Source: Mobula hypostoma
Lineage: Eukaryota
Length of the DNA stretch: 64,000 bases
Direction of reading: 5' to 3'
Assembly: GCF_963921235.1 (NCBI RefSeq)
Contig: NC_086108.1
Coordinates: 73,720,001 to 73,784,000, forward strand
Part shown: positions 2,065-63,421 of the stretch, in pieces
Layout: every line of letters begins with the position of its first letter
How positions within the stretch are numbered: position 1 is the first letter of the stretch
Program-made: the position numbers and the translations under genes
The notes under the pieces: generated by a model
The model's database searches: none
Seen by the model: the letters and a program-made list of their open reading frames with translations, nothing else
What the model was told of the DNA's origin: nothing

Positions 2065-3036
2065 GTTTACTTTGTTATTCTTCCTCTTTATCATCTTTAA
2101 TCATCCTTTCCTAAGTTTCTAATAATTTCCTCTGAACAGGTCCTGCAGAACCCCACTACAAACAACCTTCCAGTTACCAAAATCTTTTGAAATAAACCTA
2201 TAAGACTTTAAATTAATGCCAGCACGCTGTTCTCATTAACCAATAAAAGGAAAATGGACAGGCATTCACTCTCCCATCTGTTCAGTGGCAAAATAATTTT
2301 TAATAGCATTTTAAGCAAACCTATTAATTCACTAATCATCTAAATTAATTAAAATACTGGAATCATTTTAATTAACAATTCATCATTAAATCTAAACATC
2401 CCAGTGACTTGCTATTAAATATTCTTGACCATAATTTTAATGCATGGTCTTTGGAGAAACAGTGATGAACCAAACACTTATGTCCCTTATGTTGTCTCTG
2501 TTAATACTTGGTCTGCATTCTTGCCCTATTCATTTATAACCAACTCCAAAAGAGGCTCAAACAACAGTAGCTGAATGCAACATACTTATTTTGCATTCAC
2601 TGGCTCACCCATCTCTGCAAATCTATTTTGTGACACAAAAGAATTGTTTCTTTGGAGTGGAGGTGAATCAATGGAACATACATTTCTGTGGTGTATTGTG
2701 ACACAATCATTTATTACAAATGTTACCTTGATTTAAAGAGCTACTTCACCAAATTCACGAGGAAGCTAGATACGTTGGAAGTACAGACAGCCACACAATT
2801 ATGGCATTTAGAACAAACCTGTGTTATTTCTTAGCAATTTATAGTCAAATTATCATCTGTCCACACATTATCTTAAACTAATTTTTTCCTGCCTGTACTT
2901 TTCCATAATGCAAAATGTAAAATTTAACAACAGTACAATGATCTGCTTGACCTGTTAACCTTGCCTCCTCAATTCAATGCATGCATATTTTATTGATGGA
3001 CATTGAGGTAATGAGTACTTGAAAGTTTTCTCTCAC

Positions 3037-3138: not shown

Positions 3139-4153
3139 CTGTAAAATAAAGGATTAGATTCACATTTAAAACAAGATTTTATAACACCACCACAATTTAT
3201 TTCAGCAACAAAAGAAATTCTATATTGTATACAAATAACACTCAGGGCCCTCTGCCTCAGAAATAGGACCACTAATAAAAGAAGGGGCTCAACTTTTAAG
3301 AGTATGTCTGCCAAAAACCTTGCACATTTCTGAAGCTCCAAAACTCTCGTCAGGACACTATCATGCTCAAAAGATAATCGAGACATCTTGTTTTGATGCT
3401 GTTTAAACCTCTTTTGAAATATGCTATACTACATACTAGAACCTCATTTCTGTGCAAGTTTAGCCTTGCCAGCAGCAGCACACGATCATTAGCTTCTGAA
3501 GCTGATGTCATTGCTTATCTGAGAAATGCCTATGTCATTCCTATACACAGTGAATCCCAATGACATAATCACCAGCAGAATAATTTACCCAGACAGGTTA
3601 AGTTATACTCTGTCTGAAAAGTCATCCATCAACACTAGTAATCACTGGTGCATGAAATTAAAATGACCCACCATTCCCCCACTCCTCCAGGTCACATCAC
3701 AATACCTCTTTAAGAGACTCCAAATAGGTGGGTGTTAAGAAATATACAGAAAAATAAACTCAAAGCATTTTTCTCCTAGAAACATTACATTTTGGATCGT
3801 GTTAATATGTTTTCTCTATTAAAAATTACCTTCATATATTGGTTTTTAATACCTCCATATATTAAGATTACTAAATTAACATTTTATCTTGCAAAATAAA
3901 AGATATGTGGAAGATCACACTTACAGAATTAAATAGTAACAGAAAAAGATTTTAGTGTGGAGTTTTGCTCTAAATTAAATGTAAATCAATTTAATAATAA
4001 ATACAAACAAAAAACAACATTTAAAAAGAACAACTTCTCCCCTCCCCAAATCTTGTTCATGACTTCTTCAGAACTTCAACTGCAAGACACTGCAACACAC
4101 ATCAAAGTTGCTGGTGAACGCAGCAGGCCAGGCAGCATCTGTAGGAAGAGGTG

Positions 4154-4195
4154 CAGTCGACGTTTCAGGCCGAGACCCTTCGTCAGGACTAACTG
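4154..4195 (-). ncRNA. Minimal type I hammerhead ribozyme motif (PLE repeat)
   Basis: AGTC-CTGACGA-AGG gtctcgg CCT-GAAA-C-GTC-GACT: intact core, stems I and II, palindromic ACGT stem III. Confidence 0.8.
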
Positions 4196-6762
4196 AAGGA
4201 AGAGTGAGTAAGGATTTTAAAGTTGGAGGGGGAGGGGGAGATCCAAAATGATAGGAGAAGACAGGAAGGGGAGGGATAGAGCCAAGAGCTGGACAGGTGA
4301 TAGGCAAAAGGGATACGAGAGGATCATGGGACTGGAGGTCCGGGAAGAAAGACAGGGGCGGGGGGCACCCAGAGGATGGGCAAGAGGTATATTCAGAGGG
4401 ACAGAGGGAGAAAAAGGAGAGTGAGAGAAAGAATGTGTGCATAAAAATAAGTAACAGATGGGGTACGAGGGGGAGGTGGGGCCTTAGCGGAAGTTAGAGA
4501 AGTTGATGTTCATGCCATCAGGTTGGAGGCTACCCAGACGGAATATAAGGTGTTGTTCCTCCAACCTGAGTGTGGCTTCATCTTTACAGTAGAGGAGGCC
4601 GTGGATAGACATGTCAGAATGGGAATGGGATGTGGAATTAAAATGTGTGGCCACTGGGAGATCCTGCTTTCTCTGGCAGACAGAGCGTAGATGTACAGCA
4701 AAGCGGTCTCCCAGTCTGCGTCGGGTCTCACCAACATATAAAAGGCCACATCGGGAGCACCGGACGCAGTATATCACCCCAGTCGACTCCACTAAGAAGC
4801 ACCAGGCCATTGTCTCCCACACCATCACCGACTTTATCCACTCGGGGATCTCCCATCCACTGCTACCAACCTTATAGTTCCCACACCTCGCTCTTCCCGT
4901 TTCTACCTCCTACCCAAGATCCACAAACCTGCCTGTCCTGGCCGACCTATTGTCTCAGCTTGCTCCTGCCCCACCGAACTCGTTTCTGCATACCTCGACA
5001 CGATTTTATCACCCCTTGTTCAATCCCTTCCAACCTATGTTCGTGACACTTCTCACGCTCTTAAACTTTTCGATGATTTTAAGTTCCCTGGCCCCCACCG
5101 CTTTATTTTCACCATGGATGTCCAGTCCTTATATACTTCCATCCCCCATCAGGATGGTCTCAAAGCTCTACGCTTCTTTTTGGATTCCAGACCTAATCAG
5201 TTCCCCTCTACCACCACTCAGCTCCGTCTAGCAAAATTAGTCCTTACTCTTAATAATTTCTCCTTTGGCTCCTCCCACTTCCTCCAAACTAAAGGTGTAG
5301 CTATGGGCACCCGTATGGGTCCTAGCTATGCCTGCCTTTTTGTTGGGTTTGTGGAACAATCTATGTTCCGTGCCTATTCTGGTATCTGTCCCCCACTTTT
5401 CCTTCGCTACATCGACGACTGCATTGGCGCTGCTTCCTGCACGCATGCAGAACTCGTTGACTTTATTAACTTTGCTTCCAACTTTCACCCTGCCTTCAAG
5501 TTTACCTGGTCTATTTCCGACACCTCCCTCCCCTTTCTAGATCTTTCTGTCTCTGTCTCTGGAGACAGCTTATCCACTGATGTCTACTATAAGCCTGCTG
5601 ACTCTCACAGTTATCTGGACTATTCCTCTTCTCACCCTGTCTCTTGAAAAAACGCCATCCCCTTCTCGCAATTCCTCTGTCTCCGCCGCATCTGCTCTCA
5701 GGATGAGGCTTTTCACTCTAGGACGAGGGAGATGTCTTCCTTTTTTAAAGAAAGGGGCTTCCCTTCCTCCACTATCAACTCTGCTCTTAAACGCATCTTC
5801 CCCATTTCACGTACATCTGCTCTCACTCCATCCTCCCGCCACCCCACTAGGAATAGGGTTCCCCTGGTCCTCACCTACCACCCCACCAGCCTCCGGGTCC
5901 AACATATTATTCTCCGTAACTTCCGCCACCTCCAACGGGATCCCACCACTAAGCGCATCTTTCCCTCCCCCCTCTCTCTGCATTCCGCAGGGATCGGCCC
6001 TACACAACTCCCTTGTCCATTCGTCCCCCCCATCCCTCCCCACTGATCTCCCTCCTGGCACTTATCCTTGTAAGCGGAACAAGTGCTACACATGCCCTTA
6101 CACTTCCTCCCTTACCACCATTCAGGGCCCCAAACAGTCCTTCCAAGTGAGGCAACACTTCACCTGTGAGTCGACTGGGGTGATATACTGCGTCCGGTGC
6201 TCCCGATGTGGCCTTTTATATATTGGCGACACCCGACACAGACTGGGAGATCGCTTTGCTGAACATCTACGCTCTGTCTGCCAGAGAAAGCAGGATCTCC
6301 CAGTGGCCACACATTTTAATTCCACATCCCATTCCCATTCTGACATGTCTATCCACGGCCTCCTCTACTGTAAAGATGAAGCCACACTCAGGTTGGAGGA
6401 ACAACACCTTATCTTCCGTCTGGGTAGCCTCCAACCTGATGGCATGAACATCGACTTCTCTAACTTCCGCTAAGGCCCCACCTCCCCCTCGTACCACATC
6501 TGTTACTTATTTTTATGCACACATTCTTTCTCTCACTCTCCTTTTTCTCCCTCTGTCCCTCTGAATATACCTCTTGCCCATCCTCTGGGTCCCCCCCCAC
6601 TTGTCTTTCTTCCCGGACCTCCTGTCCTATGATCCTCTCGTATCCCCTTTTGCCTATCACCTGTCCAGCTCTTGGCTCTATCCCTCCCCCTCCTGTCTTC
6701 TCCTATCATTTTGGATCTCCTCCTCCCCCTCCAACTTTCAAATCCCTTACTCACTCTTCCTT

Positions 6763-35412: not shown

Positions 35413-38400
35413 TGGCTGTCGATGGAGTAGCAGCGTTTTTATAGTTGCTCCTACTTTACTTAATTTGCTGTTTCCAACTTGTTTTGAAATCTTACTTTTA
35501 AACGCAATATTGTTTTACGATGACAGGTGTCAAAGCTACTAAAAAAGAAGAGGACCCTCCTATAACTTTGGAATCTATTATGGAGACACCTTGGAAGCAT
35601 AAAAATGAGCTTTCAGAGGAGTTCCAGCAGAAATTCCAGCAACTCAGCGCTGAATTTAAACGAATGGATGTAAAATTGGATTCTATTCAAAAAACTTTAA
35701 GTGAACACGATAAACAGATAAAAGAGAATGAAGACACTTTGATGATGTTGGATGCGAAGATTGATGACCTGGAAAAGATCTGTGATAAACAGTCAAAGGT
35801 TAATGAAAAATTAAGACAGAAGATTATCGAATTAGAAAATAGAAGCAGAAGAAATAATTTACGAATTCTGGGTTTTAAAGAGTTAATGGAAGGCAATCAG
35901 CCTTCAGAATTTTTTGCAAACCATTTGGCTAACTTATTTCCGAATATTTAAAAATCTCCACCTAAAATAGACCAAGCTCATAGATCGCCAGTACCAAGAC
36001 CTCCTCCAGGATGGTACTCCTCCTCCAAGACCCCATTCAGTGATAATTTGTCTTCACGACTTTCAACTAAGGAACTTTTAATTCGTGAGTGTCGTTGGAA
36101 AGGTATGATTGATTAAGAAGGCCAGAAGATCAGAATGTGAAGGAGTTTTCACCCGAGGTGTTGAATGAACACTTCAAGTTTTAAAAAGTTATGTCAGAAT
36201 TGTATAATAAAGGTTTTAAACCCTCTCTTCATTGCCCCGCTCGACTTAGAATCATTTTGAAAAATGGCTCTCAGAAATGGTTCTGTTTGACTCAAGAGGT
36301 GCAGGATTTTTTAATTTCCGAATCAGTATCAGAAGTTTAACTGTTCAATAATTCCCTACGTAAATCTATGTTGCAACTGCCTGATGGATCCTTTTTTTAA
36401 GAATCAGCAGTCTAACTGTTGATTACTTTCTTTTATGAACAATTGTTTTTTTTTAAACTTTTGGTATACCTTCCTATCTAATTTTTTTTGTACTTCTACT
36501 TCTTTGCTTAGAAAATTAAGGATTTAACATCAGTAAGTTTTCACTGAGTTAATAATTTCCAAGTTAATAGGTTCTGAATTTTCTTAGTTCTTTTTAATAT
36601 TTTATACTATATTTTTTCATGAGTTTTTTTTAATAAGTTTAATTTTGCTCTGTTTTTTGTTGTGTCTTGTTGGAATGCAGTTAGCCTTGAAATTTTTTTG
36701 GAGCTCAGCCAGTAGATTGTTTTGGGAGTGTAATATTGGTAGGTTTAGCTGTCGACTGCCCTTTGGTCAGGTTTCTCTCTTTGGGTGGGTTTCTTCTTTT
36801 CTATCAGCTGTTTGGTTCTCTTAGATTCATTTGCTGCTTGGTTACTTTATCTTAAAGCTCATTGATTGGATTTAGTATGCATTCCAGCAGTTTTTATTCT
36901 GACCTCTCCTTTAAGCAATATTTAAAATGGACCATATGATTAATTTACTTAGTTTTAATGTGAAAGGATTAAACCATCCTGTGAAATATAAGATACTTAA
37001 TAATATTAAGAAATTGAAAGTCTCAATTTTTTTTACAAGAAACACATGTTCATAAATGCGATTAACTTACGTCTTTTCAACTGTTGGACGGGCTTATTTT
37101 TTCATTCCTCCTTTCAGGCTAAGGCCAGAGGAGTTTCGATTCTTATAGACAATTCAGTTTCTTTCATTCAACATAATGTAGTGTCTGATACCAACGGGCG
37201 TTTTGTTATAGTGTTAGGGAAATTAGATAATAAATTAATGATTTTTACTAATTCATATGCCCCGAATATAGATGATCCAGGTTTTTTTGAACACTTTTTT
37301 TCGCTTTTACCAGACTTAAGTCTGTATTCTCTGGTTTTAGGAGGAGACTTCAACTGTTGTTTAGACCCTGTTTTAGATCGCTCATCTTTTAAATGATTGA
37401 CTTTTAGTAGATCTGCCTCCTTTGTCCAATCTTTTCTAATGAAAGGTGATATTGTTGATTTGGCACTTTTTGCATCCAACAGATAAAGAGTACTCATTTT
37501 TTTCTCACATTCATCATACATATTCCAGGATTTTTTTTTTGTTGATAGTCAATTGATTCCATTGATTCAATCCTGTAAATATAAAAAAATTGCTGTTTCA
37601 GATCATGCTCCTGTGTTTTTATCTTTAAATTTTCCGGGTGTCTCCCAAATAAACAGATTCTGGCGTTTTAATCCAACTCTGTTATCTGATAAGGATTTTT
37701 TAAAATTTTTGGAGAGACAAATTACTTTTTTACTTCTAGTCTTATTTTATGGGATGCTTTTAAGGCTTATATTAGAGGACAAATTATTTCTTTTACCACA
37801 AGTGTTAAGAAAAAAACTAATAAGGAGAGAATTGAATTAGCCAATCAGTTGAAACAATTAGACCAAAAATATGCTTTGGCTCCAGATTCTGCTTCATATA
37901 AAAGACATGTTGAAATTAAAACTAAATACGATCTGCTTTTAACTTATCCAATTGAAACTCAACTTTTAAAAGATAAAAGTCAGTTTCATGTTCATGGAGA
38001 TAAAACGGTTAAACTATTGGCTAACCAATTAAAGACCTTTATAGTTAAATGCCAAATTAAAGAAATTTGTAAAGTTAATCGTGATAAAACATCTGATAAT
38101 TTAGAAATAAATGATACTTTTAGAGAATTCTATTCTAAACTTTAGAGTTCTGATCCTCCGAAAGATAATACTGTAATGAATAATTTCTTAGATCGATTAA
38201 ACATTCCTACACTTTCTGATGACAATCGAAAATTGCTGGATCAACCCACTTCTTACGAGGAAATTGCCGAGGTTGTTCACTCTTTGCACTCGGGGAAGAC
38301 TCCGGGTCCTGACGGAGTTTCTGGAGAGTTTTATAAGGCTTTTTCCTCTTTGCTTATACCTCACTTATATTCAGTTCTTCGGACTCTTTTAAATTAAGTA

Positions 38401-40938
38401 GGTTGCCACAATCTTTTAATGAAGCCTCTATTTTGCTTATTCTTAAAAAGAATAAGGATCCAACTGAATATTCTTCTGATAGACTAATTTCCTTACTTAC
38501 TGTTGATACTAAAATTTTATCTCAACTTTTGGTTCATAGGATTGAAAATATTTTGCCATCTATTATTTCTGTTGATCAGACTGGATTTATCAAAAATTGA
38601 TACTCCCACTTTAATATTCATCATTTATTGAATGTTATTTATTCTGCTTCTAAAGAGATATCGGAATGTGTGATATCCTTAGATGCTGAGAAAGCCTTTG
38701 ATCGGGTTGAATGGAATTATTTATTTAAAACTTTAGAAAAATTTATCTTTGGGTCCGATTTTATTCAATGGATTAAGTTACTTTATTTATCTCCCTCCGC
38801 TCAGGTTCTTACAAACTCTTAGAACTCTAAACCATTCAAACTTCAACATGGAACTAGATAAGGTTGTCCTTTGAGTCCTTTGCTTTTTGATTTGGTGTTG
38901 GAACCTTTAGTTATTGCCTTCCGGAAATCCAATGATATCATTGGTATTTTAAAGAGGGGTATTACCCACAAAGTTTCGCCTTATGCTGATGACGGTTTGC
39001 TCTACATTTCTAATGTGGAGTTGTCTTTACCATCCGTACTTTCTTTACTCTCCTGCTTTAGTCAGTTTTCAGGACATAAACCTAACTTTCATAAGAATGA
39101 ACTTTTCCTTTGAATAATTTTGTATTAGTTAATACTAACCTTCCTTTTAAAATTGTAAGAAATCAATTTACTTATTTGGGCGTAACAATTACTAGGAATT
39201 ATAAATTCCTTTTTAAAGAAATGTTTTTTTACACTTCTGAGTTATATTAAGAAGGCACTATCAAATTGGTCACCCCTCTCCTTATCGTTGATTGGCTGAA
39301 CTAATTCTATCAAAATGAATATTTTGCCTAAATTTTTATATTTATTTCAGGCCGTACCTGTTTTTATTCCTAAATCTTTTTTTGATTCTCTGGATTCTAT
39401 TATATCTTATTTATGGAAAAATAAAATTTCTCGATTAAATAAAATTCATTTTCAAAAAACTAAAAAGAATGGAGGTTTAGCCTTACCCAATTTTAGGTTT
39501 TATTACTGGGCAGTCAATATACGGAATCTTACGTTTTGGTTATATTATATTAATCGAGAGGACTGTCCAGTCTGGGTTTCTCTAGAAGCTAATTCTGTTA
39601 ATAAATTTTCTATCATTTCTCTTCTTGGATCCTCAATTCCTTTATCTTTAAGTAAGTTAACTGATAATTTTGTAGTTAAACATACTTTGAGGATTTGGTT
39701 ATAATTCAGAAAATATTTTGGTTTACTGAGTTTTTCATTATTTAAGTCCCATATTTTCTAACTATTTTTTTAAACCTTCTTTGACTGATGTAGTTTTTAA
39801 AGAGTGGAATAGATTGGGTATTAAATGTTTTCAGGATTTGTTTGTTGGAGATAGTCTCTCTTTATTTGAGCAACTGTCAGCTAAATATAGCCTACCCAAA
39901 ACCCACTTTTTGTGATATTTACAAATTAGAGACTTTTTGCATTCTCAAGTACATACACTTCCTAAAAGCCCAGATAAGAATTTACTTGGTATAATTTTTA
40001 ATTTGAAACCCTTCCATAATGGATCTATATCTAATATTTATGGTATGTTGTTGGGAATGAGAAATATTCCTTTAGACAAAATTAAAAACCTCTGGGAACA
40101 AGATGTACAGATTCCAATTTCTGAGGATACTTGGAATGAAATTTTTTAATTGGTTAATACCTCATCGTTATGCGCCCGTCATTCCCTTCTACAATTTAAA
40201 GTGGTTCATAGGGACTAAAGATAAGCTGTTTCATTTTTATTTGAATATATCTCCCTATTGTAATAGATGTAACAATGGAGAAGCTTCACTAATTCATATG
40301 TTTTGGACTTGTCCGAGCCCTGAAAAATATTGGAAGGAAGTATTCCAAACCTTTTCGATGCTTTTCAAAGTAAATTTTAAACTTAATCCTTTGACTGCCT
40401 TATTTGGTATTGCTGGAAGAAATTATATTATTTTGGAGACACATGATTTGCACATTTTGGCCTTTATTTCTCTTATAACCAGGAGCGCATTGTTGCTTAA
40501 GTGGAAGGATGCCACTCTGCCCACTCATACTCATTGGTTAAATGATGTTATGTCATGCTTAAATTTAGAGAACATTCGCTGTTCAATTTCTGAACCTAGG
40601 CTAGATTTTTTAACATTGTGGGGACTTTTTTGAATTATTTTCAAAATCTTTGATTTGCTATTAAGCACGGATGTTAGCTAATAATATGTTTTACTATATG
40701 ATAAGGATTTTTTCCTTTTTTTTAAACCAGTTTTTTTTCCTGGTAGTGGGTTTAGATTTTTTTTTGTATACTAAAATTACCTCTTTTCGATATTATGTTT
40801 AAATTTAATTTATACGGATATGGGGTAATGAGACTATATTTGTGATTCCAATATATTGTAATCAATATATATTATATATCCTACTGTACTCTGTATTCTT
40901 TTATGTAAGAAATCAATAAAAATATTGAAAAAGAAAGA
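35413..40938 (+). mobile_element. Near full-length decayed L1 (ORF1 35520 to about 36340; T-rich spacer; ORF2 36927 to about 40633)
   Basis: ORF1 coiled coil plus ELENRSRRNNLRILG; endonuclease NVKGLN, GGDFN, SDH; RT PGPDG, SLDAEKAFDRV, YADD; C-terminal C..C...H..WTC; AATAAA and A-rich tail; many stops. Confidence 0.95.
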
Positions 40939-42948: not shown

Positions 42949-43137
<189 letters not shown>

Positions 43138-52681: not shown

Positions 52682-53315
52682 AATAATTATTTGCTCTATT
52701 AAGAAAAATGGAAGAACATTCAAATACAGCAAAAAGAAGAACATGTCCCAAAAACACCTTCATACTGTGGGGATAGAAGAAGGAAATACAAGAACATTGT
52801 TGTTTTGAAAACAAACAAGTTCTCAGATTTCGCTGGAAGCCTGCTCATTTAATGGCAATGAGACTCTATTATACCATGACATTATTTGTTTCAAATGAAA
52901 ATTACTTAAAGCCAACAATAAGTCAAAATACCTCATGAATAAAACTCGTCACAATTTTACAGAAGTATTAATAAGAAACATGAACAACAGTCTACCATTT
53001 TATAAGACAGAAAGACACAAAAATTAGTCAACAGTGGTTAATACTTCCATAACAAAAATATACAAGAACACTGAACAGACAACATTAAGTTTGCATTAAT
53101 CTAAACAGGTCAGCACAAGGAGGACCAAAGCAACTTGGTTTTCATTAACGTACACTTATTTACAGATCCAATGACTTCAACTGAGATTCCTCAAGAAGCT
53201 ACATTATCCACAAAATACAACTTAAGTATTCCATTTCCCAAAGAGTCAAGTACAGTTTGTGCATTATTCTGCATACACACAACTAAAAGTGAAATACTGT
53301 TCACTATTGCATTTT

Positions 53316-53365
53316 CATGCAAAAAAGCACATGCAAACATGGAAATTGCAGCTGCAGAACATGCA
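53316..53365 (-). promoter_or_regulatory. Cluster of three UGCAUG (RBFOX-type) intronic splicing motifs downstream of the microexon
   Basis: CATGCA on + at 53316-53321, 53330-53335 and 53360-53365, 36-85 nt into the downstream intron. Confidence 0.75.
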
Positions 53366-53400
53366 ATAAATATGACAGCAACACTTATATTGAGTGTTAC

Positions 53401-53421
53401 CTGTCAGCTCTGTGACCATGG
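53401..53421 (-). CDS. MAST2: MAST2 21-nt frame-preserving microexon, giving ...AR-SHGHRAD-RTDGRR...
   Basis: ttctattttttcgatgcAG|CCATGGTCACAGAGCTGACAG|GTaaca; phase 2-2; resembles the SHGHR-type insert I recall from some vertebrate MAST2 isoforms. Confidence 0.85.
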
Positions 53422-54282
53422 CTGCATCGAAAAAATAGAATTGCATTAATAGCTCGCAAAACAGCAGAATGTAATACAGTCAAGCAAGTTGATGTATTTA
53501 TCAACATTTGTGATAAAGACAACTGAGACTTCTTCATTTCTCAGTATCTATAGACTTTTTTTGCATTAGGTGCTCACGGCAGTGAATTATTTCTAAGGAA
53601 CACACAAGGTACATTTATTGTTTGTTTTTAAGATAGTCCAATTCATTTACAGTAGCCAAAGTAAACCATTGGCTCTATTAAAAAATTAAAAATTTTCAGT
53701 AAGATTCCTTTTCACATGGAATATCTGCTTGACCATATTTAAAATATTTTTTGATATATGAATACACAAATTGTTTTAAAATAATTTTTTGCATCACTGA
53801 GCAGAAATAAATAAGTTGGTGACACAAACAGTGAACTATTTAAGTTTATACCATGTTTCACCCGATAAATGAACAATTACCTTTCCTCTTTTTTATTTTA
53901 CATCATGTTTCTATTACTACCTCCTTCGTGACAAAGTGATCAGGGTTACAAAATGGTAATCTATAGCCCCAACATAATTAGACAATACTTAATGTTTTAG
54001 ACTGCATTATTTAAGCAGAATTGGCAAATGGTATTTGCCATTACCAAGATGAGAGAGTTTTGAAACCAATACAAGAACTGCAGTGAAGTAATAACACCAC
54101 AAGGGTAAAGATTGACTTGTGAAACATATGCATTAAGAAGGCAATGTAATTGAAACAACCCTTTAGTGCAGGCTTTTCTTTGCAGTACATATAAAAGATT
54201 CTCTAAGTTAGGTTCCATAATAATGATTTTGTATCAAAGCTTCACTTATGTAGCAGCTTTAATGAAGTGAACTTCCTAACTT

Positions 54283-55478
54283 AGAACACAGAACACAGAA
54301 TAGTACAGCATACTACAGGCCTTTCGGCCCACAATGTTGTGCCGACCCTCAAACCTGCCTCCCATATAACCCCCCCCACCTTAAATTCCTCCATATACCT
54401 GTCTAGTAGTCTCTTAAACTTCACTAGTGTATCTGCCTCCACCACTGACTCAGGCAGTGCATTCCACGCACCAACCACTCTCTGAGTACAAAACCTTCCT
54501 CTAATATCCCCCTTGAACTTCCCACCCCTTACCTTAAAGCCATGTCCTCTTGTATTGAGCAGTGGTGCCCTGGGGAAGAGGTGCTGGCTGTCCACTCTAT
54601 CTATTCCTCCTATTATCTTGTACACCTCTATCATGTCTCCTCTCATTCTCCTTCTCTCCAGAGAGTAAAGCCCTAGCTCCTTTAATCTCTGATCATAATG
54701 CATACTCTCTAAACCAGGCAGCATCCTGGTAAATCTCCTCTGTACCCTTTCCAATGCCTCCACATCCTTCCTATAGTCAGGCGACCAGAACTGGACACAG
54801 TACTCCAAGTGTGGCCTAGCCAGAGTTTTATAGAGCTGCATCATTACATCGCGACTCTTAAACTCTATCCCTCGACTTATGAAAGCTAACACCCCATAAG
54901 CTTTCTTAACTACCCTATCCACCTGTGAGGCAACTTTCGGGGATCTGTGGACATATACCCCGAGATCCCTCTGTTCCTCCACACTACCAAGTATCCTGCC
55001 ATTTACTTTGTACTCTGCCTTGGAGTTTGTCCTTCCAAAGTGTACCACCTCACACTTCTCCGGGTTGAACTCCATCTGCCACTTCTCAGCCTACTTCTGC
55101 ATCCTATCAATGTCTCTCTGCAATCTTCGACAATCCTCTACACTATCTACAACACCACTAACCTTTGTGTCGTCTGCAAACTTGCCAACCCACCCTTCTG
55201 CCACCAAATCCAGGTCATTAATAAAAATCACGAAAAGTAGAGGTCCCAGAACAGATCCTTGTGGGACACCACTAGTCACAATCCTCCAATCTGAATGTAC
55301 TCCCTCCATCATCACTCTCTGCCTTCTGCAGGCAAGCCAATTCTGAATCCACCTGGCCAAACTTCCCTGGATCCCATGCCTTCTGACTTTCTGAATAAGC
55401 CTACCATGTGGAACCTTGTCAAATGCCTTACTAAAATCCATACAGATCACATCCACTGCACTACCCTCATCTATATGC
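54283..55478 (-). mobile_element. Young 5'-truncated CR1
   Basis: ORFs 55091-55480 (DFSKAFDKVPH, SGVPQGSVLGP, FADD) and 54281-55075 separated by a single stop; (TGTTCTG)-type tail. Confidence 0.95.
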
Positions 55479-56811
55479 AATCTCCAATGATCAAAACAAA
55501 TAATTTTTAAAAAATGAAGAGTGGGTGTAGCATAATTAAAGAGATATGTTTTGAAGAACTTTGTTCTTCAATGTACAAAACAATGTACAAAAGCCAGAAG
55601 TGAATATGATGCATAGAAGAGTACAGTAAGAACAAAGTACAATTAAAGGCAATGTTACAGAAATAAAGTAGATCAAAAAGTGGAGGATTTTCTAAACATG
55701 CATAGAATTCAAGGCTGAGAAATGAGGACGTGTCAGAGGTGGAGTGGTTGGGGAACTGGTGAGGATATGCTGGCAGAAACGATCGAGAATAACCTGAGTT
55801 TCATCAAGTTTTAATTTAGGCACACAATTGTGGATGAAATCTTGTAATCTCAGACGAGATTATATTTTCTTTTTTCATTTGTGGTGTTGTTGTCATTGTG
55901 AGCATCAATTCCTTATCCCTATCCCTCCTTGAAAATGTGGTGGTGAACTATTGCAACTTTCTGGTGAATAATTCTCCTGGTGCTGTTGGGTAGACAGTTA
56001 GGTGCAGTTTTTAAAAACTGAAAGATTGGCAACCTAGATTAGGACTGCATATGTCTTGGAGTGGAATTTGCAGCTAGTACTCTCATCTTTCTTGATTAGC
56101 AGAGTTTGTGGCTTCTGGAGGTGTTGGTGCAGTAGTCTTGACAGCAACTCGCACAGTGTTTTAAAGATGCCACAAATTGCTGCCAGAACATCAGCAGGCA
56201 AATTACTTTACATAAGATACCCAAAATAGTGCAGGGCTTTGTCAACATAAATGTCAATGGATAAATAGTTAGACCTGTTCTTTTGGTACATGATTTCTTT
56301 TCTTTGAATTTTTGTGTAGCAAATGTGACTTATTAGCCTATACTTGAGTGTTGGCCAACTCTTGCTACATGCAAGCACAAACAGCTTCATTTTCTGAGCA
56401 GCGGCACATGGAATTGGACATTGTAATCACTAAGAACAATGCACTCAGCTGACCTCATGATCTAAGCAAGATCTAAGTAAGGAAACAGCTGAAGATGGGC
56501 CAACGAACTAGGACGCTCCCTGAAAGACTCCTGGGTGATGTTTCTGAACTAGAATGATTGAAGTTTTCCGTGAACTTTGATTGCCTTTTCTCAGACAAGG
56601 CTATCAACTTCATTTTAATTGAGGCCCGTAACCCCATATTTGATGACATGCTATCTTGTCGCCAAGGACAATCTTTCTCTCTTACCCCTGGAATCTAGCT
56701 CTTCGGTCCACATATGGACTAAGGCTATAACAAGGTCAGGAACTAACTGAACTTGACAAAATTTTAATTTAGCATTGGTCAGCTAGTCATTAAAGACTAG
56801 GTGCTGCTTCA

Positions 56812-56935
56812 TTAATCTCTGATCATAATCCATACTCTCTAAACCAGGCAGCATCCTGGTAAATCTTCTCTGTACCCTTTCCAATGCTTCCACATCCTTC
56901 CTATAGTGAGGAACAGATTGTGGTCTTCCGGTTAG
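56812..56935 (-). repeat. Inverted copy of the Rex/CR1 junction at 57430-57572
   Basis: Reverse complement reads CTAACCGGAAGACCACAATCTG-TTCCTCACTATAGGAAGG...GAGATTAA. Confidence 0.9.
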
Positions 56936-57124
56936 GCAATACTTTCCATAACTTTGACAATTAAGAGTAGACTAAATGGAATCTTCCCTCTACAATTGCT
57001 TTGAGGTGGTAATTTTTAACAAGATCACCTTAGATACATTTATTTGCATAAGGCAGATTTGTGAGGATGAGGCCAAGGAGCTTCAGCCCTCTTTGGCAGA
57101 CATTTCCTCAGAGTCTGATGAACC

Positions 57125-58995
57125 AGGTAGCACTTACATCGACAGCAATGAAATGATTTGAGAGGTTGGTTATGACTAGACTGAACTCCTGCCTCAGCAA
57201 CGACCTCAACCCATTGCAACTTGCCTATCGCCACAATAGGTCAATGGCAGACACAATCTCAATGGCTCTCCACACGGCTTTAGACCACCTGGACAACACA
57301 AGCACCTATGTCAGGATGCTGTTCATCGACTATAGCTCAGCATTTAATACCGTTATTCCTACAATCCTGATTGAGAAGTTGCAGAACCTGGGCCTCTGTA
57401 CCTCCCTCTGCAATTGGATCCTCGACTTTCTAACCGGAAGACCACAATCTGTGCGGAAGACCACAATCTGTTCCTCACTATAGGAAGGATGTGAAAGCGT
57501 TGGAAAGGGTACAGAGGAGATTTACCAGGATGCTGCCTGGTTTAGAGAGTATGCATTATGATCAGAGATTAAGGGAGCTAGGGCTTTACTCTTTGGAGAG
57601 AAGGAGGATGAGTGGCGACATGATAGCGGTGTACAAGATAATAAGAGGAATAGATAGAATGGATAGCCAGTGCCTCTTCCCCAGGGCACCACTGCTCAAT
57701 ACAAGAGGACATGGCTTTAAGGTAAGGGGTGGGAAGTTCAAGGGAGATTTTAGAGGAAGGTTTTTTTACTCAGAGAGTGGTCAGTGCGTGGAATGCACTG
57801 CCTGAGTCAGTGGTGGAGGCAGATACACTAGTGAAGTTTAAGAGACTACTAGACAGGTATATGGAGGAATTTAAGGTGGGGGGGTTATATGGGAGGCAGG
57901 GTTTGAGGGCCAGCACAACATTGTGGGCCAAAGGGCCTGTAATGTGCTGTACTATTCTATGTTCTATAACATATCCTCCTCGCTGACGATCAACACTGGC
58001 GCACCTCATGGGTGTGTCCTTAGCCCACTGCACTATTCTCTATATACACATGACTGTGTGGCTAGGCATAGCTCAAATACCAGCTATAAATTTGTTGACG
58101 ATACAACCATTATCGGTAGAATCTCAGGTGGTGACGACTGTGCATACAGGAATGAGATATGCCAACTAGTGGAGTGGTGCCGCAGCAACAACCTGGCACT
58201 CAACGTGAGTAAGACAAAAGAGCTGATTGTGGGCTTCAGGAAGGGTAAGACGAAGGAACACATACCAATCCTCATAGAGGGATCAGAAGTGAAGAGAGTG
58301 AGCAGCTTCAAGTTCCCGTGTGTCAAGATCTCTGAGGATCTAAACTGGTCCCAACATATCGACGTAGTTATAAAAGAGGCAAGACAGTGGGATTAGGAAT
58401 TTGAGAAGATTTGGCAGGTCAACAAATGCACCCAAAAACTTCTATAGCTGCACTGTGGAGAGCCTTCTGACAGGCTGCATCACTGCCTGGTGTGGAGGGG
58501 CTACTGCACAGGACCGAAAGAAGCTGCAGAAGTTTGTAAATCTAGTCCGCTCCATCTAGGGTACTAGCCTATAAAAGTACCCAGGACATCTTTAGGGAGC
58601 GGTGTCTCAGAAAGGCAGCGTCCATTATTAAGGACCTCCACAACCCAGGGCATGCCCTTTTCTCATTGTTACCATCAAGTAGGAGGTACAGAAGCCTGAA
58701 GGCACACACTCAGCGATTCAGGAACAGCTTCTTCCCCTCCGCCACCCGATTCCTAAATGGACATTGAATCTTTGGACACTACCTCACTTTTTTTAAAATA
58801 TACAGTATTTCTGTTTTTGCATGATTTTTAAAAATCTATTCAATATACATAATTGATTTACTTGTTTATTATTATTATTTTATTTTATTTATTATTATTT
58901 TGTTTTCTCTGCTAAATGTATTGCAATGAACTGCTGCTAAGTTAACAAATTTCATGTCACATGCCCGTGATAGTACACCTGATTCTGACTCTGAC
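57125..58995 (+). mobile_element. Rex-Babar-type LINE (RT to 3' end) interrupted by a CR1
   Basis: [15 protein letters not shown] (57166-57483); TGAPHGCVLSP, KFVDD, LNVSKTKEL (57923-58396); (TGATTC)-type tail. Confidence 0.92.
57472..57966 (+). mobile_element. CR1 3' fragment nested in the Rex element
   Basis: Nearly identical in reverse complement to about 54290-54780; TTCTATGTTCTA tail. Confidence 0.93.
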
Positions 58996-61524: not shown

Positions 61525-62860
61525 AAGATAGACCATAGTCAGCATGCTTTCCTTGCCTGACAAGTCTGTTGGAATTCTTCAAAGAAATAACAAGCAGGAA
61601 GACAAAAGAGAATCAGTTGATGTGTGTACTTGGATTTTCATAAGGTCTTTGACAAGGTGCCACACATGAGAAACATAGAAACATAGAAAATAGGTGCAGG
61701 TGCAGGCCATTCGGCCCTTCGAGCCTGCACCGCCATTCAGTATGATCATGGCTGTTTAACAAGCTATGAGCACATGGCATTACAGTAAAGAGCTTTTTCT
61801 GACTGGCTGCCAGTGACTAGTGGTGTTCCAACAGAGGTCTGTATTGGGACCGATTCTTTTTACTTTATATATCAATGATTTGGATGATGGGCTTGACAGT
61901 TTTGCTGTGAAGTTTGCAGAATATCTGAAGATAGAAGGAGTGGCAGGTAGTTTTGAGAAAGTAGAAAGGCTACAGAAGAGCTTAGATAGACTAGGAGTAT
62001 GGGTAAAGAAATGGTAGATGGAAAACACTGTTGGGAAGTGTATGGTCATGCTCTTTGGCAGAAGAAATGAAAGGGTTTACCATTTTCTGAATGGAGAGAA
62101 AATACATAAAAACAGAGACGCAAGGGATTTGGGAGTCCTTGTGCACGATTCCCTAAAGGATAATTTGCAGGTTGAGTCTGTGGTGAAGAAGGCAAATGCA
62201 ATGTTAGCATTCATTTCAAAGGACTAGAGTATAAAAGCAAGGATGTACTGTTAAGATTTTATAAAGCACTAGTGAGGTCTCACTTGGAGTTTTGAGAGCA
62301 GGTTTGGACCCCTTAGCTTATAAAGTATGTGCTGAAACTGGAGAGGGTTCAATTGAGGTTCATGAAAAAGATTCCAGGATTGACTGGCTTGCCATATGAA
62401 GATTGTTTGATTGCTCTGGGACTGTGTTCACTAGAATTCAGAAGAATGAAGATTGACTTCATTGAAACCTATCAAATGGGGAAAGGCCTAGATAGAGTGG
62501 ATATGAAGATGTTTCCTGTGGTGGGAGGGTCTAAGATCAGAGGACACAGCCTCAGAGTAGAGGGGCATTCTTTCAGAACTGAAATTAGGAGAATTTCTTT
62601 AGCCAGAGAGTGGCAAATCTGTGAAATTGTTTGCCACAGGCAGCTGTGGAGGCCAAGTCTTTATGTATATTTAAGGTACAGTTTGATAGATTTTTGATTG
62701 GCCAAACGTGAAGGGATACGGGGAGAAGGCAGGAGTTTGGGGCTGAGAGGAAAACTTGGATCAGCCATGGTGAAATGACGGAGCACACTCGATGGGCCAA
62801 TTGGCCTAACTCTGCTCCTATATCCTATGGTCTTATAAACGTCTAAGATTCTATGTTTCT
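61525..62860 (+). mobile_element. Decayed CR1 RT and 3' end, with a minus-strand CR1 tail inserted at about 61668-61754
   Basis: SVLGPILFTLYINDLD and LERVQLRF motifs; (AGAAACAT)n tail interrupts the FDKVPH region. Confidence 0.85.
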
Positions 62861-63245: not shown

Positions 63246-63345
63246 CATTCATCTGGTTAATTCCACATGCATCTGTTAAAATTTCATGCAACACCCAGAA
63301 AACTGTTCATGCAATTCCAGTTTAAAATGAAGCAACAAACCTTAC

Positions 63346-63421
63346 CTTCGTGCTGGTATGAATGAAAAATGAGCTGCTGCATTGGGAGAAAAATTCCTTG
63401 GACTGTCGAGGGGACTGCCAC
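63346..63421 (-). CDS. MAST2: MAST2 internal exon (76 nt): [24 protein letters not shown](R)
   Basis: Acceptor tttacccgcAG and donor GTaagg; peptide matches the [15 protein letters not shown]...HFSF motif; ends in phase 2. Confidence 0.93.

Follow-up and report, generated by a model that had tools for sequence, protein, structure and literature searches.

Closest described microexons

Human MAST2 carries a 21-nt microexon, exon 13 (hg19 1:46466631-46466651), whose inclusion in breast cancer cells is promoted by ZRANB2 and SYF2 and falls upon knockdown of these factors (PMC7049692, accessible parts). The 21-nt MAST2 exon with the VastDB identifier HsaEX0037980 is included in HEK293 cells with a PSI of 23.6 under GFP and of 81.6 under SRRM4, a rise of 58 points (S4 Data of PMC7935315, available in part). 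In mouse, a Mast2 microexon has been employed as a neural-differential exon that depends on Srrm4 (PMC11283458); its coordinates were sought in the accessible text and supplements of that paper and were not found. The exon described below is, in this sense, already known, since it is annotated in shark and skate and its splicing has served as a read-out in cells of mouse and human. HsaEX0037980 is very likely human exon 13, an equation that we assume from the equal length and the hg19-hg38 offset rather than from a lift-over.

As a general rule, UGCAUG is enriched below alternative microexons (PMC4317164, accessible parts), and Mast2 is mentioned among the genes that acquire neuron-like splicing after Rbfox2 overexpression, the exon being unnamed in the accessible part of that report (bioRxiv 10.1101/2024.09.20.614071). 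A search of the literature for exon-level RBFOX evidence on MAST2 returned nothing beyond this gene-level mention. In the accessible supplements of PMC12868881, PMC12626420 and PMC12626424 no Mast2 row was found, and the zebrafish neural-exon tables searched in PMC12626424 do not list mast2. The MAST2 'exon 8' of PMC10325915, as described in the accessible part of that paper, was not equated with the ray microexon. Finally, paralogous microexons as such are already known from APBB1-3.

A MAST2 microexon in the ray genome

The window, that is, the whole 64-kb stretch of Mobula hypostoma DNA that was analysed, sits within a 3.48-Gb genome, and a single MAST kinase gene contributes six larger exons to its minus strand. 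With MAST2 from skate, sharks and chimaera, the 70-aa exon at 12625-12416 shares 94-97% identity, and with the three other MAST loci of the same genome 77-81%. One of these other loci is 100% identical to ray MAST4 and one to ray MAST1-like proteins, while the third has one peptide, NFPFARR, in common with chimaera MAST3. A single Heptranchias isoform among the matches of the 70-aa exon is labelled MAST1 and clusters with MAST2 isoforms. A tree of 21 named MAST proteins, which includes one long, unreliable pigeon row, resolves four groups and sets MAST3 and MAST4 apart from MAST1 and MAST2 (support 87/99). By these comparisons the gene is MAST2 of cartilaginous fish and not MAST1, MAST3 or MAST4, in agreement with the name first given to it from its sequence. 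Its introns are filled by broken retroelement-like open reading frames (4068-6473, 35502-40633, 54281-58396 and 62317-62697), which, judged by eye, consist of reverse transcriptase and endonuclease-like pieces and represent ordinary repeats.

The microexon (53401..53421, minus strand) is a 21-nt cassette exon of phase 2-2 that adds SHGHRAD, matching residues 207-213 of skate MAST2 X1 (P0121); a tblastn search with this protein placed residues 207-214 exactly there. It is located between the donor of a 76-nt upstream exon (63346..63421) and the acceptor of a 79-nt downstream exon (42991..43069), both on the minus strand, and its splicing in keeps the frame. When it is skipped, the intron measures 20,276 nt (9,924 + 21 + 10,331). 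The acceptor reads CAG (53422..53424, minus strand) and the donor GTAACA (53395..53400, minus strand), the latter fitting the U1 consensus at 7 of 9 positions with the exonic CAG counted. A short polypyrimidine tract covers -19 to -8 (53429..53440, minus strand). Further upstream, TATTAAT at -30 to -24 (53445..53451, minus strand) is a predicted branch point with a putative branch A at 53446 (-25). It fits the branch-point consensus YNYTRAY at 7 of 7 positions. Thus the exon has the length (3-27 nt), the AG/GT ends and the frame preservation of alternative microexons, and every sequence feature that the sequence-only reading had ascribed to it, namely a frame-preserving 21-nt exon adding SHGHRAD, with canonical splice sites, inside an intron of about 20 kb, was found on the minus strand.

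The shape of the exon is by itself common: 16 open-frame candidates of the form AG-21-GT occur in the 20,276-nt intron, so that the exon is established by conservation and not by shape. A chance match in a long intron, which this number of candidates might suggest, deserves practically no credence, since only this candidate encodes the annotated MAST2 peptide and homologous exons lie in the same intron of two paralogues; conservation refutes it.

In Fig. S12 of PMC7049692 (accessible parts), the neighbours of human exon 13 encode the same peptides as the flanking exons of the ray, the 76-nt and 79-nt exons being the counterparts of human exons 12 and 14, respectively, and 19 of the 21 bases of exon 13, aligned by eye, are identical to those of the ray microexon. 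On this agreement of gene, flanking exons, length, phase and sequence, the ray microexon is the orthologue of human MAST2 exon 13. The two differ at position 3 of the peptide, which is G in the ray and S in human, and in the introns, which are far longer in the ray.

Conservation across vertebrates

The peptide is strongly conserved in annotated MAST2 isoforms. Among the best 120 matches to the 70-aa exon, the insert is present in 38 (in 36 of them behind the normal upstream exon) and skipped in 67, while six have another upstream sequence and nine are without the region; these counts come mostly from predicted gene models and are not junction counts. In all 38 carriers the insert reads SHGHRAD. 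Carriers among these matches include skate, sharks, chimaera, frogs, caecilian, lizards, snake, alligator and birds, and further comparisons add Xenopus, gar and platypus; both forms are annotated in chimaera, both Xenopus species, gar and platypus. The insert is absent from the listed isoforms of Heptranchias (0/4), Pleurodeles (0/7), Electrophorus (0/2) and coelacanth (0/1). The conservation among jawed vertebrates that had been suspected from the ray sequence is therefore borne out by alignment to vertebrate MAST2 isoforms, with an identical peptide from chimaera to platypus.

An invertebrate or lamprey outgroup was sought in a search of 50%-representative sequences, mostly fragments, in which 8 of 145 new proteins span the junction. 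The four junction-spanning proteins looked up by name, together with the P0497 cluster, are all from jawed vertebrates, so the age of the exon cannot be taken beyond this group. What the present comparison adds to the known exon is mainly evolutionary depth, the peptide being unchanged from cartilaginous fish to platypus.

Skipping of the microexon in public contigs

To follow splicing in the ray itself, contigs from 8 of 22 listed runs were examined; 16 runs were guessed to be RNA, and none bears a tissue label. In one contig set, position 43069 is joined directly to the upstream exon at 63346 in four of four runs, the 20,276-nt skip junction being read from contig loose ends on a short stretch. 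Two of these runs (X7 and X8) are identical to the window at each of the 30 letters shown, and two (X3 and X4) are one letter off near 63349-63350, with the arginine kept; the difference reflects a close relative or an allele. Run X4 is flagged as probably DNA, yet its contig is spliced. In the second contig set, the match of two contigs stops at 43071, the end point expected from skipping, whereas with inclusion it would reach 43072. The skipped form of the microexon thus occurs in this ray.

Of the two junctions that had been proposed as a check, the skipping one (63346>43069) was accordingly found, and the inclusion one was seen in none of the contigs, whose tissues are unlabelled: in the second set, 0 of 4 runs cover 53166-53500 and no 53401-43069 joint is listed. 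The included form is annotated in isoforms of skate, sharks and chimaera, which are predicted models. Since every contig bridging the junction skips the exon, it could be argued that the exon is real in other vertebrates and no longer used in this ray. We regard such disuse as very improbable, because the peptide equals the vertebrate consensus, both splice sites are preserved, the UGCAUG cluster described below is above chance and the skate orthologue is annotated with the exon. Moreover, contigs keep the main path and drop minor forms, and the runs are without tissue labels, so that the absence of an inclusion contig is not evidence of absence of the included form.

Two further observations concern the downstream exon, which encodes RRWS. 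In run X5, a contig continues into the intron on the upstream side of this exon (43070-43125) and is spliced downstream, as would be expected of partly processed RNA or of an alternative start. Another run of the second contig set starts inside the exon.

Regulatory motifs around the microexon

Three UGCAUG elements lie within 85 nt of the microexon donor, at +36 (53360..53365), +66 (53330..53335) and +80 (53316..53321, ending at +85), all on the minus strand, where the sequence-only reading had placed them. Given the rate in the whole window, three such elements in 85 nt at a given site have a Poisson probability of about 5e-6, and comparison with local dinucleotide shuffles gave P = 0.013; the cluster exceeds chance. 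A second cluster of three, missing from the sequence-only reading, lies below the donor of the upstream exon (63266..63313, minus strand; +33, +56 and +75; shuffle P = 2e-4). These two are the only threefold clusters of this kind on the sense strand of the 64-kb window, and the antisense strand is devoid of them. The upstream-donor cluster may strengthen that donor or share in the same splice choice, and it could act differently from the downstream cluster. By eye, the human gene has one UGCAUG at about +43, near the first ray element at +36, and another at a similar place below the exon 12 donor; the human exon thus retains one of three downstream elements. Elsewhere in the ray gene, a single UGCAUG (2985-2990, minus strand) is found at +52 below the donor of the AHERSESS exon.

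Upstream of the exon, a UGC at -24 to -22 (53443..53445, minus strand) adjoins TATTAAT, as reported earlier, and a second one lies at -5 to -3 (53424..53426, minus strand), between the pyrimidine tract and the AG. A TGC within -30 to -2 accompanies 35% of 1,967 sense-strand YAG sites, so the UGC of the microexon is not above chance. It is at best a weak candidate site for SRRM3/4, and at this chance frequency the -24 UGC was rejected as diagnostic of these factors. It is placed upstream of the pyrimidine tract and is without a human counterpart: at the human exon no UGC was seen, by eye, within the 30 nt that precede the AG, as compared with two in the ray.

The ray exon resembles the SRRM3/4-dependent (eMIC) microexons of 3-27 nt in its length, frame, deep conservation, location in a reportedly disordered region and, as a weak feature, an upstream UGC with a pyrimidine tract, and the human event is SRRM4-responsive. 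It departs from them in the position of its -24 UGC, and the human exon does so in its notable non-neural baseline inclusion and in the lack of a proximal UGC. With respect to RBFOX-enhanced alternative microexons (PMC4317164, accessible parts), the ray exon is similar in having UGCAUG in its 3' flank, although for MAST2 the published link is a gene-level mention. RBFOX control of the microexon is plausible from the motif counts, the general rule and this one mention. SRRM3/4 regulation of the ray exon is likely by orthology. The proposal that it is a neural, SRRM3/4-type microexon thus gains from the published SRRM4 response of its very likely human orthologue and has in the -24 UGC a weak argument.

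Considering these data, we think it likely that the conserved cassette microexon of the ray, the orthologue of human exon 13, is included mainly in neurons, probably through SRRM3/4 assisted by RBFOX at the downstream UGCAUG elements. The small size of 21 nt and the short pyrimidine tract would make skipping the default. Inclusion could be raised by SRRM3/4 acting close to the acceptor, by RBFOX on the downstream cluster and by ZRANB2 at the donor, and would be strongest in neurons. Some findings count against this model, among them the lack of the UGCAUG cluster at the paralogous exons described below, the missing mast2 entry in the zebrafish tables searched and the listed isoforms of four species that are without the insert. 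Inclusion is not confined to neurons, given the control PSI of HEK293 cells and the inclusion in breast cancer lines (PMC7935315 and PMC7049692, accessible parts). Furthermore, the human exon keeps one UGCAUG, has no proximal UGC and is still SRRM4-responsive, so the ray motifs are to be regarded as candidates and not as demonstrated working elements.

In a different pattern, which we consider the less probable one, rays would lack a sharp neural switch: the exon would be included broadly and partially, mainly under the general factors SYF2 and ZRANB2, the latter acting at the 5' splice site, and, in muscle or mesenchyme, under RBFOX2. This pattern would account for the inclusion of human exon 13 in breast cancer lines and its fall on ZRANB2 or SYF2 knockdown, for the HEK293 baseline, for the absence of mast2 from the zebrafish neural lists searched and for the many isoform models genome-wide that contain the insert. 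It fits poorly with the 58-point effect of SRRM4 and with the neural-differential, Srrm4-dependent behaviour of the mouse exon, as given in the accessible parts of the papers cited above. In zebrafish, moreover, a 21-nt exon of mast3b, possibly a paralogue of the MAST2 microexon, shows a neural dPSI of +91.8 and a change of -24.8 in srrm3/4 mutants; its human counterpart is not neural (PMC12626424, accessible parts). Neuron-biased inclusion through SRRM3/4 and RBFOX thus stays our preferred explanation.

Location of the insert in the protein

The insert occupies residues 207-213, near the start of DUF1908 (185-466). It had been proposed that these residues change the context just before the RRWS phospho-motif; this is not borne out. 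With its final D and the restored junctional R, the exon leaves RTDGRRWS untouched, positions -7 to -1 of the serine being identical in both forms, and a change of the RRWS motif by the insert was ruled out. The insert most likely acts as a spacer and not as a motif switch, one of seven residues and fixed sequence between an SP-rich/FSF segment and the RRWSLAS serine cluster. The RRWS serine itself is presumably phosphorylated, given its PKA-type consensus.

The N-terminal DUF has been described as disordered, with predicted 14-3-3 sites, and disease mutations of MAST kinases are reported in DUF1908 (PMC12024977, accessible parts); Mast2 requires this domain for its in-vitro activity (PMC12732324, accessible parts). 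Among the best 60 of 667 matches to solved structures, only the kinase domain is covered. No discussion of this exon was found in the accessible parts of three MAST papers. Inclusion would introduce seven residues into this reportedly disordered N-terminal part, and such a spacer, neither creating nor destroying the RRWS motif, might subtly tune phosphorylation or the binding of a partner such as 14-3-3. Lying in DUF1908, the insert makes it simple to test whether MAST kinases are tuned by splicing. In zebrafish, most deletions of single microexons are without phenotype in most tests (PMC12626424, accessible parts), which suggests that the effect of a single microexon is often subtle.

Homologous microexons in MAST paralogues

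The two other ray loci with a homologous exon carry it in the same intron. In the MAST1-like gene, a 21-mer with AG/GT ends and five mismatches (G000:C81:19516561-19516581, plus strand) encodes SHGHRSD; its T tract is long, and the first UGCAUG comes as late as +176. In MAST4, a 21-mer with four mismatches (G000:C12:167452751-167452731, minus strand) encodes SHGHRTD. The acceptor of this exon is poor in pyrimidines, several UGC lie upstream of it, and a single GCAUG is found at +9; use of an inner AG could also yield a 9-nt form. As a control, 663 AG-21-GT sites in 193,151 bases were compared, and fewer than eight mismatches were obtained only in the MAST2 exon itself. The UGCAUG cluster was sought at both paralogous exons and is absent from them, with no UGCAUG within 170 nt of either. 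In the MAST3-like intron of the ray (2.77 kb; L014:7150-9920, plus strand, G000:C73), nine open AG-21-GT candidates are present and none is homologous; the missing exon likely reflects a lineage-specific loss.

Inserts are annotated at this place in 11 of 22 chondrichthyan MAST1-like proteins. For MAST4, they are annotated in sharks, rays and two birds, and in 2 of 64 listed bony-vertebrate members of the MAST4 cluster. MAST3 of the swift and an unnamed relative have SHAPRTD at the same place. None of ten catfish MAST1 proteins spanning the site contains an insert. As inserts are found on either side of the deepest split of the tree, they are most simply explained by one origin that preceded the MAST duplications, and we hold it highly probable that the microexon arose in the ancestral MAST gene, before the vertebrate duplications. 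The sister exons in MAST1, MAST3 and MAST4 would then make it a family-wide, pre-duplication feature, which is a modest addition to the known microexon. No paper on a paralogous microexon of the MAST family was found among the titles listed from the literature, mostly open-access, that was searched.

The MAST1-4 exons are comparable to the 6-nt microexons of APBB1/2/3, which likewise hold the same position in early-vertebrate duplicates (PMC4317164, accessible parts). They differ in that the APBB microexons lie in a folded PTB domain, whereas the segment that holds the MAST exon is reportedly disordered, and the ray MAST3 intron lacks the exon. A more far-reaching scenario, which is tentative and on balance doubtful, would have a single ancestral microexon kept in four paralogues with lineage losses and rewired control, the RBFOX double cluster being present only in MAST2, and a DUF1908 spacer tuning kinase activity or 14-3-3 binding throughout the family.

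A different, longer insert (NGLRDVCVC-like) is observed at the same junction in the MAST4-type proteins P0249, P0256, P0263 and P0495, of which the named ones are cyprinid; it may represent an extended acceptor or a model artefact.
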